From IMG/VR virus record IMGVR_UViG_3300026183_000930, positions 60,222 to 124,221 of that record: a stretch of 64,000 nucleotides of DNA, one strand, 5' to 3'. This document shows, piece after piece, positions 35,822-60,340 of this stretch. Under the pieces are notes generated by a model. That model was not told the DNA's origin and made no database searches. It saw only the letters and a list, made by a program, of their open reading frames with translations. The stretch is from a virus. Each line of letters opens with the position of its first letter. Within the stretch, counting starts at the first letter, position 1. Made by a program: the position numbers and the translations under genes.

Positions 35822-36328
35822 TTATCGCAAAAATTCTTCAATGTTAAGCTCAAATTTAATTGAATCTACTTTATGTACTCCAATTAAGTATAAAATATAA
35901 CTAGAAACACTGGATCCTCTACCTACACCCCATACTATGTTATTTTTTCTCATTGTGTCTATCATGTAGACCATAAAACGCAACACATCTAACATACCAC
36001 GTTCTTCAAACATCTTGTACTCATACATAACTCGAGTTGTTTGAATTTCATTGCTGGTTTTGTTTAAAAGATGCTGTTTGATATCAAGGTCTTTGTACTC
36101 TTGTGTCATGTACCAAGTTTGTTGATTAACTGTATCAAACTCTTCTTGACTTATATCAACATAATTTTTTAATTCAGACAATGACAATGTGTTTGTTGTA
36201 ACTGAATTGTTGTACTGTTCTACAACTGATTTTTCAAATGATGCATTTTCAATTGGTTTGTTTTGATACAACAGTTCCAATCCATCATGCTCATCTAAAA
36301 TACATCTTTTTAAATTATCAAGTCTCAT
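35822..36328 (-). CDS. Stand-alone DnaE (Pol III alpha) fragment-like protein
   Basis: WGVGRGSSVSSYILYLIGVHKVDSIKFELNIEEFLR aligns with DnaE GRGS.AGS...LGIT.VDP..Y.L.FERFL. Confidence 0.7.
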   Translation of the reverse strand: MRLDNLKRCILDEHDGLELLYQNKPIENASFEKSVVEQYNNSVTTNTLSLSELKNYVDISQEEFDTVNQQTWYMTQEYKDLDIKQHLLNKTSNEIQTTRVMYEYKMFEERGMLDVLRFMVYMIDTMRKNNIVWGVGRGSSVSSYILYLIGVHKVDSIKFELNIEEFLR

Positions 36329-36858: not shown

Positions 36859-37185
36859 TTATACTGCAAAAGATTCTCCGCAACCACATGACGAAGTTGC
36901 ATTTGGATTTTTGATTTGAAAACTTGATCCCCAAACCTCCTTTACATAATCTATAGTTGTGCCTGCTACAAACATGACACTCATTTTGTCAACTACAAAC
37001 TTTGTATTGTTTTCTAAATCAACTACTTCATCATCAATAGATATGTCATTAGCAAAACCCCACTTGTATTGAAAGCCAGCACAGCCTCCGCCTTTGACAT
37101 TTAATCTCACTGCTTGAACTTCATTTTCTTTGCATAGTTTCTGCATCTGTTCTTTTGCAGATTCTGTTAAAGTAAATAAACTCAT
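36859..37185 (-). CDS. A-type Fe-S carrier (IscA/HesB/ErpA family)
   Basis: GGGCAGFQY and NPNATSSCGCGESF. Confidence 0.92.
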   Translation of the reverse strand: MSLFTLTESAKEQMQKLCKENEVQAVRLNVKGGGCAGFQYKWGFANDISIDDEVVDLENNTKFVVDKMSVMFVAGTTIDYVKEVWGSSFQIKNPNATSSCGCGESFAV

Positions 37186-37239
37186 AAAATTATTTAATCC
37201 TTATAATTGTTGTAATTATGTACTATGATAAAGAAAATG

Positions 37240-37809
37240 TCAACTAAATTCTTGAAGTTTTCGCTGTGTAAGTCTCCTAGACCTACGTTTTTTGGCTTTT
37301 TTGGAAGGGCTACACAGTTTGCCATATTTGACTATCTGTCTATTATTTTCGTTGAACCACTGTACATATTTCACAGCCGCTGAATACGAATCTGGTATGT
37401 CTGTTTCCAAGATAGGTGTATAAATTATTTTATCTTTTTGTTCAGTGAAAGGTCTTAATTTAACATAGTAATCACCATTGTGTTCAATCACAGTTTTACC
37501 TATGATATGATTGTGTGTTTTTTGAGCAGGAACTCTTTCAGTTAAAAATTCATGATGACCTATGATTTGTATTGAGTTTTTTATATCTTGTTCTGCCCAA
37601 AACATACGTGGATACCACGAAACAGTGCCATTCCATGAAATCGATTCTCCTGATCTATTTTCTTTGATTTCCCAGGCCATGAAATGGCCACTGATTCCTT
37701 TATCCGTACCACGTGCTACAACCAATTCATCATTCAATTGGTTCAGTCTTTTTGATCTCCACACTGTTGTTTCAATGTGGCAGTCTGTGAGATATTGTTT
37801 ATCCTGCAT
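37240..37809 (-). CDS. Hypothetical protein with basic tail
   Basis: 189 aa ORF. Confidence 0.5.
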   Translation of the reverse strand: MQDKQYLTDCHIETTVWRSKRLNQLNDELVVARGTDKGISGHFMAWEIKENRSGESISWNGTVSWYPRMFWAEQDIKNSIQIIGHHEFLTERVPAQKTHNHIIGKTVIEHNGDYYVKLRPFTEQKDKIIYTPILETDIPDSYSAAVKYVQWFNENNRQIVKYGKLCSPSKKAKKRRSRRLTQRKLQEFS

Positions 37810-37987
37810 TCTTTTGTTCTTGAATTTGTTTTCTAATTTCTTTGCAAAGTTTAGAAATTTCTGCTAATGCTTTTCTGGCTCTTGTGCCAGCCGCTTTAAC
37901 ATTATCATTTGAAAACTTTGTATAGTTCTCATTAAATGATTCCACATGAGATTCAAATTCTTTTACTATTGTACTTTGTTCTGTCAT
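37799..37987 (-). CDS. Histone H1-like Hc1-family small protein
   Basis: KAAGTRARKAL.EI.KL.KEIRK.IQE signature and AGGAG RBS. Confidence 0.7.
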   Translation of the reverse strand: MTEQSTIVKEFESHVESFNENYTKFSNDNVKAAGTRARKALAEISKLCKEIRKQIQEQKNAG

Positions 37988-38021
37988 ATTGACTCCTTAT
38001 GTTTTTCATTATTATAATAAT

Positions 38022-38135
38022 TAAAAGTTAACCCCAGATTGCTGACCTACAGTGGAGCAACGACAATAACCCAGGTCTGGGGTCCACTCGTATCTGAAGC
38101 ATCTGTTCATAGGTTACTGGGAACTTCAGCATTAC
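38022..38135 (-). ncRNA. Candidate structured ncRNA (pseudoknotted)
   Basis: GC-richer island with several complementary segments, TAAATA at 38141-38146 upstream and a U-rich end. Confidence 0.5.
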
Positions 38136-38150
38136 AATTATATTTAGCTT

Positions 38151-38384
38151 TTATGATTTTGGATTTTTTTGGTTTTCAATGACTTTTGGAAAAATAGTTG
38201 AAACAGCATCTTTATAAACTAATTGAGTATGGCTGTCTTTTTCTAAAAGAAAGCAAGATTCATCTTGCTTTGTAATCTTACCAATTAGTTTTATACCATT
38301 TTTCAAAAATGCAGTAATTTGTGTTTCTGTGGCCATTACTGCATGGTAAAATTCTTGTTCTACATTATTTGTATTTGTTGTCAT
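38151..38384 (-). CDS. hfq: Hfq-like Sm protein (divergent)
   Basis: FLKNGIKLIGKI...D...LL...QLVYKDAVSTIFP matches Hfq Sm1/Sm2. Start reassigned to the ATG at 38384. Confidence 0.85.
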   Translation of the reverse strand: MTTNTNNVEQEFYHAVMATETQITAFLKNGIKLIGKITKQDESCFLLEKDSHTQLVYKDAVSTIFPKVIENQKNPKS

Positions 38385-38513
38385 TTTTTTATATACCTTT
38401 GTTAACAATATCAATGATATTATTTATAGATATTTATGATTTATTTTAAATATTCAACAACAACAGAGCTGAGATCCATAATAACATCAGAAATAAAACC
38501 GGCTTTGGATTTA

Positions 38514-38966
38514 TCATACTTTTTTACCTGCTGTTTTTAGATCTTCTCTTGCCACTACCATGTACGGGCCTTTGTTGTATGCTGGTGCAATAGAATACTG
38601 CTTACTGATTTCAAGACGTTCTTGTACTTCTTTCCATGATGATCTTGAACTTCTATAGTATTTGGCTTTGGGTTCTGGTAATTGTGTTGTGACTGATATT
38701 TTAGGATTAGGCAGTGCTTCTGTTGATTCTGCAACATAGATTGGCTTTTTAGGGGTTGCTTTGGCTTTGTAACAACCAAAACAATAGTCTATGTATTCTT
38801 TTAAGCTCATTTGCATATGACTACATTTTATCTGTCTCATATACTTGTTGTGCTCACGCATCATTTTTTCATACTTTTTGATTTGATTATCAGAAAGTTT
38901 GTTTCTTTTGCTTTTTGGCTTTTTGAGATTAAGAGTTGTCAGCCCTTGTTCCAGATGCATTGTCAT
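38514..38966 (-). CDS. Basic hypothetical protein
   Basis: 150 aa with a C-terminal APAYNKGPY. Confidence 0.55.
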   Translation of the reverse strand: MTMHLEQGLTTLNLKKPKSKRNKLSDNQIKKYEKMMREHNKYMRQIKCSHMQMSLKEYIDYCFGCYKAKATPKKPIYVAESTEALPNPKISVTTQLPEPKAKYYRSSRSSWKEVQERLEISKQYSIAPAYNKGPYMVVAREDLKTAGKKV

Positions 38967-39678
38967 TTTTTTGTCTTTCTAAAATAATACTGTTTACTTT
39001 TTTCATAAAATCAGTGTCAGCAGGTTCATAATCTGATCTATCTAAAATTTTAGTCATAATATACCAATCGTATGGTTCTTTTATTTCTTTGTCTGGTTGT
39101 TCTTGGTTTTTAAGTTTTAAATCATATGTGTTGCTGATATAATCAAAACCAGCTCTAAGCATCAACGATCCCCATTGTTTTTTGCCCATCACTGAGTAAT
39201 GATTAGGCCAATGTTCTAAGTTACGATCTGTTAATTCCGGAGTGGGCATTTCAATGTAAACTCTGCTGTCCATTTTCATAATTCTATTAAATTCTAACAG
39301 AGTCAAGTATGGCCAAACTGAATGTTCTAAACAGTGTCTCACAATCATCCAATCAATACTGTTGCTTTCAAAATTTGTAAAACTCATATCACAATTATGA
39401 GCAGTGTATCCTTTACTTTTCACTGTGTTAAAATCATTTTCACTATATGTAACTGCAATTAAATCTTTTTTGTCTAATCCAAGTTCTACTAATTGATCTA
39501 GCATGAAGCCAGAACCACTTCCCATATCTACTAGGGTTTGTCCTTTTTTTGGACCATCAGGTCTTTGAAATAAATCTTTTGATACTTGCTTTATGATTTT
39601 CATATGCAAAGGAGAATCTTCTTCTGAATAAACTTCCTTTGAAATCATTTCATAAAATTTTTTTATTTGTTGTTCCAT
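38929..39678 (-). CDS. Class I SAM-dependent methyltransferase
   Basis: VDMGSGSG, HCLEH, EFNRIMK. Confidence 0.78.
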   Translation of the reverse strand: MEQQIKKFYEMISKEVYSEEDSPLHMKIIKQVSKDLFQRPDGPKKGQTLVDMGSGSGFMLDQLVELGLDKKDLIAVTYSENDFNTVKSKGYTAHNCDMSFTNFESNSIDWMIVRHCLEHSVWPYLTLLEFNRIMKMDSRVYIEMPTPELTDRNLEHWPNHYSVMGKKQWGSLMLRAGFDYISNTYDLKLKNQEQPDKEIKEPYDWYIMTKILDRSDYEPADTDFMKKVNSIILERQKNDNASGTRADNS

Positions 39679-39692
39679 TATTTTTCCTTTTT

Positions 39693-39767
39693 TGGAGCGG
39701 GCGATCGGGGTCGAACCGACGACCTATTCGTTGGCAACGAATCGCTCTACCACTGAGCTACGCCCGC
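39693..39767 (-). tRNA. tRNA-Gly(GCC)
   Basis: GCGGGCGTAGCTCAGTGGTAGAGC...TTGCCAA...GGTTCGACCC...CTCCA; encoded CCA. Confidence 0.95.
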
Positions 39768-50526: not shown

Positions 50527-50602
50527 TGGTGGAGGATAGCGGGATCGAACCGCTGACCTCCTGAATGCAAATCAGGCGCTCTCCCGGCTGAGCTAATCCC
50601 CC
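50527..50602 (-). tRNA. tRNA-Ala(UGC)
   Basis: GGGGGATTAGCTCAG...TTTGCAT...GGTTCGATCC...CCACCA. Confidence 0.95.
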
Positions 50603-52551: not shown

Positions 52552-52627
52552 TGGCTCCTCGGGCAGGACTCGAACCTGCGACCAATTGATTAACAGTCAA
52601 CTGCTCTACCAACTGAGCTACCGAGGA
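52552..52627 (-). tRNA. tRNA-Asn(GUU)
   Basis: TCCTCGGTAGCTCAGTTGG...CTGTTAA...GGTTCGAGTCC...GCCA. Confidence 0.95.
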
Positions 52628-52640
52628 ATATGCTCTAGAA

Positions 52641-52716
52641 TGGTGCCGGCAGAGAGATTCGAACTCCCGACCTGACGATTACAAATCGCCTGCTCTACCA
52701 ACTGAGCTACGCCGGC
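52641..52716 (-). tRNA. tRNA-Thr(UGU)
   Basis: GCCGGCGTAGCTCAG...TTTGTAA...AGTTCGAATCT...ACCA. Confidence 0.95.
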
Positions 52717-59776: not shown

Positions 59777-60340
59777 TTAACTGTTTTGTCTACCACTTTT
59801 CATGTTGGCACACCAATGATACATTTTAGCCTTTTCACCACTGGATTTTTTTGCTTTTGCTCTTAAACTTGTAACTGATCCTTTGCAACTGGCACCTGCA
59901 CGTTTTACTCTGCCTGGTCTTGATTTGCCTTTTACTTTGCCATCAGCAAAATTTTCAACAGCAAATTCTGGATTAGGTGTTGCAAAATTAGACTTACGCA
60001 TGATTGTTTTTGCAACAAGATCTAATTCTTGTCCATCCCATTGCAATGCAAAAGGAATATTAACATCTGTTCGCATGTCTTTCATCACTGCTTCTGCATC
60101 TGGTCCTAACTGTGCAATTGGTTTACCGTGTTGTTTGTAAACTTGTTTGAATAGTCTTGTGAGTTCTGCCATTGTTATTGGCTTTTGATTTCTTGGATCG
60201 TTTACTCTGTCTTTGAAATGTTTTGAAAATTCAATGTCTATACCCAATGAAGCAAACAATCTGTCAGCATAAACTTCAAGTTGTTGTAAATCTTGATCAG
60301 TAATTTCTTTGTTTTCTTTTAGTAATTCAAAAAACCTCAT
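59777..60340 (-). CDS. Two-module hypothetical protein (possible BECR-fold RNase plus basic tail)
   Basis: MRFFELLKE; IEFSKHFKDRV...LVAKTIMRK; basic Cys-containing tail. Confidence 0.5.
   Translation of the reverse strand: MRFFELLKENKEITDQDLQQLEVYADRLFASLGIDIEFSKHFKDRVNDPRNQKPITMAELTRLFKQVYKQHGKPIAQLGPDAEAVMKDMRTDVNIPFALQWDGQELDLVAKTIMRKSNFATPNPEFAVENFADGKVKGKSRPGRVKRAGASCKGSVTSLRAKAKKSSGEKAKMYHWCANMKSGRQNS

Follow-up and report, generated by a model that had tools for sequence, protein, structure and literature searches.

Intrinsic terminators and attenuators, as well as riboswitch platforms, share a common layout in which a G+C-rich hairpin stands against a U run upstream of the gene that is regulated. 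Structured RNA is also found between genes: in phage T7, intercistronic hairpins are processing sites that separate messages. Hfq-dependent sRNAs such as DapZ and MicL, in turn, arise from the 3' ends of mRNAs by way of an internal promoter. In phage T4, the operator of gene 32 is described in excerpts of PMC535899 as a pseudoknot of about 28 nt followed by a less structured, A/U-rich stretch with the ribosome-binding site, the folded part being the one that nucleates binding of the gene's own product. In Chlamydia, the sRNA IhtA represses the translation of hctA, the gene for Hc1, in trans by pairing at the hctA start region (excerpts of PMC4355289 and PMC3469542), and in Burkholderia cenocepacia a cis-encoded small RNA, h2cR, lies beside hfq2 and regulates it (excerpt of PMC3474761). 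As for phages, a paper on a lineage of large aquatic jumbo phages reports Hc1-like genes (PMC12619734), and in the excerpted part of that paper the words 'Hfq' and 'non-coding' have 0 occurrences each. Full-text literature searches yielded no paper in which hfq and hc1 are paired in a phage and, among the matches listed, no phrase naming a phage-encoded or viral Hfq; a virus-encoded Hfq appears not to have been described previously.

The locus studied here, from an uncultured jumbo phage, holds a viral hfq, a gene for a histone-like protein of the Hc1 type and a structured RNA between the two. It lies in a window of 64,000 nt, by which we mean the whole stretch of DNA that was analysed (positions 60,222 to 124,221 of IMG/VR record IMGVR_UViG_3300026183_000930). 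The virus record has 124,221 bases and an estimated completeness of 35%. The stretch is present in 20 of the 24 sequencing runs listed, which carry the labels of estuary, salt-marsh, marine, freshwater and soil metagenomes, and 6 of those 20 are recorded as RNA. In its DNA polymerase, the phage shares 42-50% identity with jumbo myoviruses such as Sinorhizobium phage Phosso, Agrobacterium phage Atu_ph07 and Klebsiella phage K64-1. The cassette lies entirely on the minus strand of the window:

38151..38384, minus strand: hfq, 77 aa from the ATG that agrees with the starts of its homologues (the open reading frame, 38151-38414, is extended by a TTG at 38414)
Between hfq and hc1, minus strand: the whole RNA element (window, about 115 nt; relatives, 115-140 nt)
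37799..37987, minus strand: hc1-like gene, 62 aa, Pfam PF07432
37240..37809, minus strand: p189, a conserved protein with a basic C-terminal tail, whose start overlaps the hc1 stop by 11 nt

The phage Hfq belongs to Pfam family PF17209 (54.5 bits, cut-off 27, E 8.7e-15) and matches 35 solved Hfq sequences at E <= 0.01, the best being chain 6gwk_A (E 2.4e-12). In the alignment, its Sm2 motif has YKD at the site of the YKH of solved Hfq, the histidine of which has a role in binding 3' uridines. The Hc1 histone H1-like protein was likewise assigned by Pfam (PF07432, 61.9 bits, cut-off 23.5, E 5.1e-17). As for p189, it has no family in Pfam or PHROG; its AF2 model reached a pLDDT of 79.5, a Foldseek search with it returned none at E <= 0.001, the best VIA Z of 5.2 was not convincing, and a look-up in the Atlas gave no usable match.

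An earlier note, made from the letters of the window alone, had put forward three possible functions for the RNA: an sRNA partner of Hfq, a ribozyme or a switch controlling hc1. Our preferred reading, to which we assign a probability of roughly 45%, is that the element is a cis-acting leader or attenuator, or an operator, of hc1–p189, with a promoter-like box of its own and a protein of the cassette as its effector.

All that the earlier note had read from the letters is indeed there. On the plus strand, 8 bp of complementarity connect 38031-38038 (accccaga) with 38076-38083 (tctggggt), ttgct at 38039-38043 faces agcaa at 38056-38060, and agtgga at 38051-38056 has its crossing partner tccact at 38083-38088. 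A further stem, 38094-38099 (ctgaag) with 38124-38129 (cttcag), turned out to be part of a closing stem which covaries between groups of relatives. The alternative pairing of 38044-38048 (gacct) with 38073-38077 (aggtc) exists in the window but is not kept elsewhere, most relatives having U and A at the partner positions 38044/38073 where the window has G. Both the TAAATA box and the UUAACUUUU end lie where the note had placed them: on the minus strand, the box is CTAAATATAAT at 38137-38147 and the element ends in GGGGUUAACUUUU at 38023-38035. The region is also richer in G+C than its surroundings, with a content of 0.40-0.44 in 100-nt segments over 38000-38149 compared with 0.27-0.28 on both sides. 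The fold of the window's element has z = -1.93 on the minus strand, with 6 of 200 shuffles as good, and z = -0.69 on the plus strand; the single sequence by itself does not show that the element is more than chance, whereas the comparison with relatives does.

Relatives were collected by scanning metagenomes with a 17-mer of the element, which gave 71 stretches to which nhmmer was then applied. The whole element is present in 26 of these 71 stretches and in 7 further viral or own loci, the remaining 45 stretches being chance matches. In total there are 26 distinct element sequences, which form seven sequence groups. Weak nhmmer matches in the loci L023, L024, L027, L070 and L071 resemble coding sequence and were rejected, as was L083, a chance match in G+C-rich DNA. 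Scans of viral contigs with three patterns returned two known phage contigs and chance matches, and nothing else. Two viral contigs carry hfq, one near-identical to the window and the other, L002, more distant: its Hfq and Hc1 are 75% and 62% identical to those of the window, yet 70 nt of its spacer are 90% identical. Wherever the contigs reach, the gene order p150..hfq–RNA–hc1–p189 is constant, and across loci the identity to the window's proteins is 64-82% for Hfq, 59-72% for Hc1 and 43-60% for p189.

Conservation was measured as between-group means over eight group representatives, using the 43 core bases that lie outside the search pattern. These bases are 91% identical between groups, compared with 73% for hfq and 76% for hc1 in the same representatives (third codon positions 50% and 62%), and thus the element is under much stronger constraint at the nucleotide level than its neighbours. 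It is single-copy in the 124-kb record, where covariance model R1 finds it at the window site with 91.3 bits. Among 79 viral loci with an Hc1 gene, such a spacer occurs only in 2, the ones that also have hfq and p189, and a covariance-model match at E <= 1 was obtained only in L006. The other 77 have neither the element nor hfq. This constant adjoining of hfq, and the absence of the element from Hc1 loci without hfq, are points in favour of the main rival to a cis-acting leader: a stand-alone sRNA from the 3' end of the hfq unit, transcribed from an internal promoter, bound by the phage Hfq and acting in trans on host or phage messages. On the whole evidence, weighed further below, we consider such an sRNA rather unlikely; the two roles are not mutually exclusive.

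Upstream of the core, the element consists of a structured 5' domain that follows the promoter-like box:

38137..38147, minus strand: conserved box CTAAATATAAT directly 3' of the hfq stop, a candidate promoter of the RNA
38088..38136, minus strand: 5' domain, an irregular hairpin closed by the long-range stem P1 and containing the stem 38124-38129 / 38094-38099
38106..38118, minus strand: apical motif AGUA-A-CCUA-U-GAA, of the pattern AGUA-N-loop-N'-GAA, near the tip

The length of this domain ranges from 49 to 84 nt and its sequence varies by group, and the first bases 3' of the box always pair with the bases immediately 5' of the core. Duplexes of the two P1 strands have a mean energy of -7.8 kcal/mol when cognate and of -3.8 kcal/mol when non-cognate (7 groups, permutation p = 1e-4); the closing stem P1 covaries between the seven sequence groups, and MFE folds show the domain closed in all 7 representatives. 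The apical AGUA...GAA pattern is found in 26 of 26 sequences compared with 427 of 5200 shuffles (8%). Its closing pair is G-C in 23 sequences, A-U in 2 (the window and L176) and G-U in 1. This last sequence is L002, in which the pattern counted is a second one close to the 5' end; at the site homologous to that of L161 and L169, its near-identical relatives, L002 reads AAUA-G..C-GAA. The motif recurs in the distant L219, and its signature presumably resembles the bulged-G (loop E, sarcin-ricin) module.

That the conserved feature is a non-coding structured RNA of the minus (gene) strand, linked to the hfq–hc1 pair, bears out what the earlier note had supposed. With the covariance model, the minus strand reaches 91.3 bits and the plus strand 15.8, and the variable pairs are G-C/G-U and U-A/U-G on the gene strand. 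Dyad symmetry, high sequence conservation and one antisense frame that is stop-free in 26 of 26 core sequences could also point to a site acting at the DNA level (in protein binding, packaging or replication) or to a small protein-coding gene, an explanation to which we give hardly any weight. G-U pairs and changes from G-C to G-U are strand-specific, appearing as C-A mismatches on the other strand, and P1 covaries with wholly different sequences. Moreover, in a gene the third codon positions would not stay invariant, those of the neighbours being 50-62% identical. Sense frames have stops in 7, 11 and 5 of the 26 core sequences and antisense frames in 16, 0 and 26; in group G, a 1-nt insertion shifts the open antisense frame, the flanks of which are unrelated between groups. 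A small gene was rejected, as no frame is open and in register across homologues.

Downstream of P1 lies the best conserved part of the element:

38027..38087, minus strand: near-invariant core of 61 nt, GUGGACCCCAGA ... UCUGGGGUUAAC, a long irregular hairpin with a pseudoknot as alternative
38076..38083, minus strand: 5' strand of the outer helix, ACCCCAGA, which pairs with 38031-38038
38031..38038, minus strand: 3' strand of the outer helix, UCUGGGGU, which pairs with 38076-38083
38051..38056, minus strand: UCCACU in the apical region, partner of AGUGGA (38083-38088) in the crossing helix
38023..38026, minus strand: U tract UUUU, directly 3' of the hairpin base

RNAalifold, like the MFE folds of all 7 representatives, gives the core as one long irregular hairpin of about 62 nt, a rod of approximately 23 pairs with bulges and internal loops, the base of which (G-C, U-A and G-U) stands directly against the U run. 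All 7 representatives show two adjacent hairpins followed by a U-rich tail, with MFE z-scores that are unremarkable (+0.17 to -2.67). In alignment A3, 50 core columns are invariant; the core helices mostly do not vary, and energy and conservation are the grounds for the greater part of the core fold. Covariation inside the core is confined to the nested model: both sides are changed in 2 pairs, and further pair types number 9 compared with 6.2 in shuffles, a value reached by 2 of 500 shuffles. Columns 26-46 hold A-U, U-A and G-U, columns 27-45 hold U-G, A-U and C-G, and columns 28-44 hold U-G, C-G and U-A. The peculiarities of the window, UUAU and GUAG in place of the UAUU and GCUA of the others, are mutually compensating. 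The 8-bp outer helix is invariant in the close family and is changed on both sides, yet kept, in the distant loci L218, L219 and L224. With homologues collected and covariation tested, as the earlier note had advised, compensatory changes were thus found in P1 and in the outer helix, and within the core covariation supports the 8-bp helix and the nested inner helix.

The candidate pseudoknot of the same note is not sustained as the defining fold by the comparison. Its strands never vary (for columns 6-10/39-43, 4 of 5 pairs are constant and the fifth, an A-U at the end, is broken in 4 of 18 distinct rows), and the invariance of the 5' strand is partly a matter of ascertainment, as this strand lay in the search pattern. 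Distant relatives are without the loop partner, and the covarying pairs 28-44, 26-46, 7-68 and 8-67 all belong to the nested hairpin, which uses the pseudoknot's bases. The 5-bp helix and the 6-bp crossing one do not vary, which speaks neither for nor against them. The crossing helix competes with the nested pairs 29-31/41-43. In terms of energy, the rod has -26.4 kcal/mol; with the strands of the crossing helix kept free it has -19.6, and adding -5.1 for the crossing helix gives about -24.7. The pseudoknot is therefore best described as a plausible conserved alternative of similar energy, which competes with the base and the tip of the hairpin and has no covariation behind it. We also evaluated a core made of a three-way junction and a pseudoknot (outer helix, small hairpin, UUGCU/AGCAA and AGUGG/CCACU). 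This model is 98.7% paired, nothing in it covaries, and its nested part has -15.1 kcal/mol compared with -26.4 for the rod. It was demoted because its pairs are invariant, its energy is poorer and the covarying pairs lie in the rod.

Searches for known families were consistently negative. Rfam 15 at the gathering threshold identified just 4 tRNAs in the whole window, all elsewhere. Relaxing the threshold to E <= 10 over 37900-38300 gave a best score of 15.8 bits (gathering score 45), and at E <= 5 the eight homologous loci gave tRNAs plus two weak plastid motifs overlying a tRNA. ARAGORN found four tRNAs and no tmRNA or tRNA at 38022-38150. A blastn search of 37700-38450 in 50,697 phage records produced no match, nor did tblastn with the phage Hfq and p189, and Hc1 matched 4 records at 39-50% identity; this Hfq and p189 are absent from the cultured phages of that collection. 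When 185,579 species genomes of bacteria and archaea were scanned twice with two-block core patterns, there were 0 matches, which leaves an origin from the host, from a host tRNA fragment or from an attachment site unsupported. No Rfam family matches the element, which constitutes a new RNA family; its likely kind of action, be it that of a structured regulatory leader or of an sRNA, is a known one.

These results also bear on whether the element could be a metabolite riboswitch of a new class or a self-cleaving ribozyme. The invariant core is what one would expect of an aptamer or a catalytic core, there are two exclusive conserved pairings (-26.4 and about -24.7 kcal/mol), and the position upstream of a gene would suit a switch. 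Against this stand the lack of any Rfam match even at E <= 10, in keeping with the earlier note, which had recognised no riboswitch or ribozyme, the histone-like gene, which hints at no ligand, and the three distant relatives, which retain the outer helix alone. As for ribozymes, HDV-like ones have the helix order P1-P2-P3-P1'-P4-P2', with P1' directly after P3. The order here is unlike it, with a 7-nt downstream-pairing strand between the small hairpin and the P1'-like strand, and an HDV-like ribozyme was rejected. The ribozyme considered in the earlier note found no support, and we hold either a riboswitch or a ribozyme to be very unlikely.

A further possibility is an RNase III-type processing site, or a 5' stabiliser, which would separate the hfq and hc1–p189 messages and set their half-lives. 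The rod of about 23 pairs with its bulges and internal loops would suit such a role, as would the intercistronic position in a unit bridged by RNA-library contigs (see below) and a structured 5' domain that could be left on or taken off the hc1 message. Such sites, however, need shape and not sequence, whereas here the loops and bulges are invariant, and the conserved promoter-like box and the 5' domain would be left unexplained. We therefore find this role decidedly doubtful. The near-invariance of paired and unpaired bases alike, including loops and bulges, suggests a specific binding partner instead.

Beyond the close family, three distant cassettes (L078/L218/L223, L219/L225 and L224) encode Hfq proteins that are 46-55% identical. 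Their spacers, at about 200-285 nt, are longer, G+C-richer and largely unalignable, and they have no match in Rfam, with 0 matches in L218 and L219. Nevertheless, the core covariance model has its best sense-strand hit directly upstream of hc1, within the hfq–hc1 spacer, in each of L218, L219 and L224. These hits are marginal (E 0.0013, 0.018 and 0.41 in a 12.7-kb search), with an alignment fitted to the model, and are credible because the syntenic position repeats. Outer-helix pairs are changed on both sides in four positions each in L218 and L219, the latter including 7-68 and 8-67, and no pair of this helix is broken in any of the three. A CCAC-type partner for the crossing helix is found in none of them; only the outer helix is kept. 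L219 and L224 share TTGACT...TAAAAT between the hairpin and hc1, which could be a separate hc1 promoter, making the RNA an independent unit there. In L226, whose Hfq is 35% identical, the model has no hit downstream of hfq.

How the element might be transcribed is suggested by its flanks, two further features of which are needed here:

38421..38428, minus strand: TATAAATA, a promoter-like box upstream of hfq, by exact match
37988..38022, minus strand: A/U-rich spacer with the hc1 Shine-Dalgarno sequence, GGAG at 37993-37996

The first of these corresponds to the consensus of T4 late promoters, and in 21 of 21 homologous loci examined a TAAATA precedes the hfq start by no more than 70 nt. The box that follows hfq is of this same kind; it reads GCTAAATATAATTA in most groups and CATAAATACAT in group G, and in 24 of 26 distinct sequences TAAATA stands 53-88 nt before the core; the contig of L161 ends before the position of the box, and L197 has none within the stretch examined. 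In the window as a whole, TAAATA-type boxes are not enriched (10 matches compared with 11.8 expected, and the same is true of TATAAATA and CTAAATA), so that we infer, rather than observe, a promoter function. On the plus strand, a sigma-70-like promoter at 37989-38018 (11 of 12 matches) was rejected, its bases not being conserved in relatives; as two sigma-70-like sites were found where 4.1 are expected, they are taken as chance.

At the other end, the nested fold closes with G-C and U-A pairs directly before UUUU, and relatives have 3-5 U, interrupted by A. A scan for terminator consensus with loops of 3-8 did not call the long hairpin. Counter to a leader with an attenuator are thus a short U tract and a hairpin not called by the scan, as well as the possible separate hc1 promoter in L219 and L224. 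The distance from the end of the core to the hc1 AUG ranges from 24 to 99 nt in 8 representatives. In L200, L150 and L002 it is merely 24-30 nt, with no TAAATA box between, which means that hc1 and the overlapping p189 must be expressed by read-through and that the element is at least a leader. It is because of this short distance in three groups that a cis role for hc1 fits best.

Contigs from four salt-marsh metatranscriptome runs were mapped on 37200-39000; as contigs only, they carry no information on ends, strand or level, and could stem from DNA. In two runs, a single contig extends from the 5' region of hfq to p189 (37423-38422 and 37379-38406), and contigs of three runs end at 38401-38422. 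In run X16, contigs break at 38023 and 38098, flanking the core, where a contig of related sequence joins; given this coincidence, the breaks may be branch points of the assembly and not transcript ends, and neither they nor the uncovered parts around the core in that run are taken as evidence. What these contigs show is only that RNA libraries contain the locus, and in them a form in which hfq, element, hc1 and p189 are joined.

Under our preferred reading of a cis-acting leader, the RNA would start at the TAAATA box right after the hfq stop and serve as leader to hc1–p189 in their common message. Together with the U tract, the hairpin could then form a leaky terminator or attenuator, and possibly a protein landing site close to the ribosome-binding site, and attenuation would limit the transcription or translation that reaches the histone-like gene. 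Pairing of GUGG with the apical CCAC, i.e. the pseudoknot of the earlier note, might pull the hairpin base off the U tract and so allow read-through. Candidates for the macromolecule that would recognise the RNA are the phage Hfq, Hc1 and p189 of the cassette itself. What the data show directly is the conservation and synteny, the lack of coding, the covariation of P1 and of the outer helix, and the presence of the element in RNA-library contigs that span hfq to p189; promoter, termination, switch and effector are what we infer in this scheme. A more specific version, which we consider speculative and unlikely, is that the 61-nt domain is a new protein-responsive switch between terminator hairpin and pseudoknot, read by the phage's own divergent YKD Hfq, and that the two make up a dedicated phage Hfq–RNA module, which would time Hc1 synthesis and DNA compaction late in infection. 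If true, it would be the first regulatory circuit around a virus-encoded Hfq.

Much of the same layout could also serve the Hfq-bound sRNA introduced above. There is a promoter-like box at the hfq stop, a hairpin with a U-rich tail at the end and, in L219 and L224, a possible separate hc1 promoter after the hairpin, while the extreme conservation of the loop is as in a seed. Such an sRNA may use the invariant apical UUGCUCCAC, which contains the anti-Shine-Dalgarno CUCC. Points against it are the U tail, which is short and interrupted, the YKD of the phage Hfq in place of the YKH of solved Hfq proteins, and a conservation that extends over the whole 61 nt and not just a short seed. Furthermore, with hc1 lying 24-30 nt after the hairpin and no box between in three groups, read-through is required.

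The significance of the locus lies in a phage hfq fixed beside an RNA that is better conserved than the surrounding proteins, and beside a histone-like gene whose chlamydial counterpart is, in the excerpts cited at the outset, under small-RNA control. What the element offers is a new RNA family for which alignment and model are defined, a concrete and testable connection of a viral Hfq to one specific RNA, and an entry point into the control of a DNA-compacting protein in large phages. Even if it were merely a conserved terminator and leader, it would be a well-supported new cis-regulatory motif.

Each of the systems from which we set out resembles the phage element in part. With h2cR, likened here by its description in the excerpt, it shares the position of a small RNA gene beside an extra copy of hfq, but h2cR is bacterial and targets hfq2. 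sRNAs of the DapZ and MicL type resemble it in the promoter at the end of a coding region and the shared terminator hairpin, both of them putative here, and in the link to Hfq, and differ in that here the upstream gene is hfq itself, on a phage, and the U tail is short. The likeness to IhtA, as far as the excerpts describe it, is RNA-level control of an Hc1-type protein whose untimely synthesis does harm; the phage element, in contrast, lies in cis directly upstream of hc1 and has no Rfam match. IhtA-like pairing at the hc1 start was tried and rejected, as 8 cognate combinations (mean -16.09 kcal/mol) have no advantage over 56 non-cognate ones (-16.11 kcal/mol). Intrinsic terminators and attenuators are alike in the hairpin and U run upstream of a gene and in an alternative pairing that would disrupt the hairpin base, whereas the phage hairpin, at about 62 nt, is of unusual length, its sequence does not vary and its U run is short. 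The operator of T4 gene 32, going by its excerpted description, is alike in having a folded 5' element followed by an A/U-rich stretch with the ribosome-binding site, in the leader of a gene whose product binds nucleic acids non-specifically, and in a T4-related phage. It is unlike in that here there is no similarity by sequence or model, the length is about 115 nt and a second domain is present; unlike that operator, the phage element also ends in a U tract, which suggests control at both the transcriptional and the translational level.

The structured RNA of about 115 nt that separates hfq from the histone-like gene hc1 lies within a gene order that can be followed further in the 3' direction, through the following features (window coordinates):

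38151-38384 (-), phage hfq, found also at L002, L185, L160 and other homologous loci
37240-37809 (-), p189, a conserved protein invariably 3' of hc1
36859-37185 (-), iscA, a gene for iron-sulphur assembly of the IscA type (66.6 bits for PF01521)

Since iscA comes next after p189, on its 3' side, in the window as well as in distant relatives of the cassette (L219, 2004-2327; L224, 2678-2998), the conserved block is hfq–RNA–hc1–p189–iscA. Between the hc1 stop and the start of p189 there is an overlap of 11 nt, and the p189 sequence combines invariant W/R/F motifs with a C-terminal tail rich in lysine and arginine. Neither Pfam nor PHROG holds a family for it; its AF2 model is largely beta (pLDDT 79.5), and fold searches returned no convincing match (top Z 5.2). 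We consider that p189 could be a partner of the RNA or of DNA. Other features of the window are:

35822-36328 (-), a 168-aa ORF with a PF07733 match (residues 85-167)
39693-39767 (-), tRNA-Gly (GCC)
50527-50602 (-), tRNA-Ala (UGC)
52552-52627 (-), tRNA-Asn (GUU)
52641-52716 (-), tRNA-Thr (UGU)

Of DNA polymerase III alpha, this ORF matches the N-terminal NTPase portion only; it is a fragment or split gene. A tRNA-Gly also occurs about 2-2.4 kb from the element at L176 and L215.

The hfq–hc1 spacers of the distant relatives are these:

L078, 2250-2467
L219, 992-1277
L224, 1696-1944

They are G+C-rich, far longer (about 200-285 nt) and begin with a TAAATA-type promoter-like box. They have no Rfam match, the AGUA...GAA apical motif is retained in L219, and L219 and L224 share TTGACT...TAAAAT upstream of the hc1 Shine-Dalgarno; these spacers may represent enlarged forms of the window's RNA. 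A contig from the salt-marsh metatranscriptome run X16 has the core in common with the window (38022-38064), whereas its flanks differ, and thus a related phage with the same core is represented in the same RNA library.

One promoter-like site is antisense and directed into the element:

37989-38018 (+), sigma-70-like TTGACT-18-TATAAT, 11/12 matches

Because its bases are not conserved in relatives, the match is probably due to chance.

The nearest solved relative of the phage Hfq is chain 6gwk_A. The Sm2 motif of the phage protein reads YKS in L192, NKH in L078 and YKN in L219 and L224; in the window, L002, L185, L160 and others it is YKD, whereas solved bacterial Hfq has YKH.
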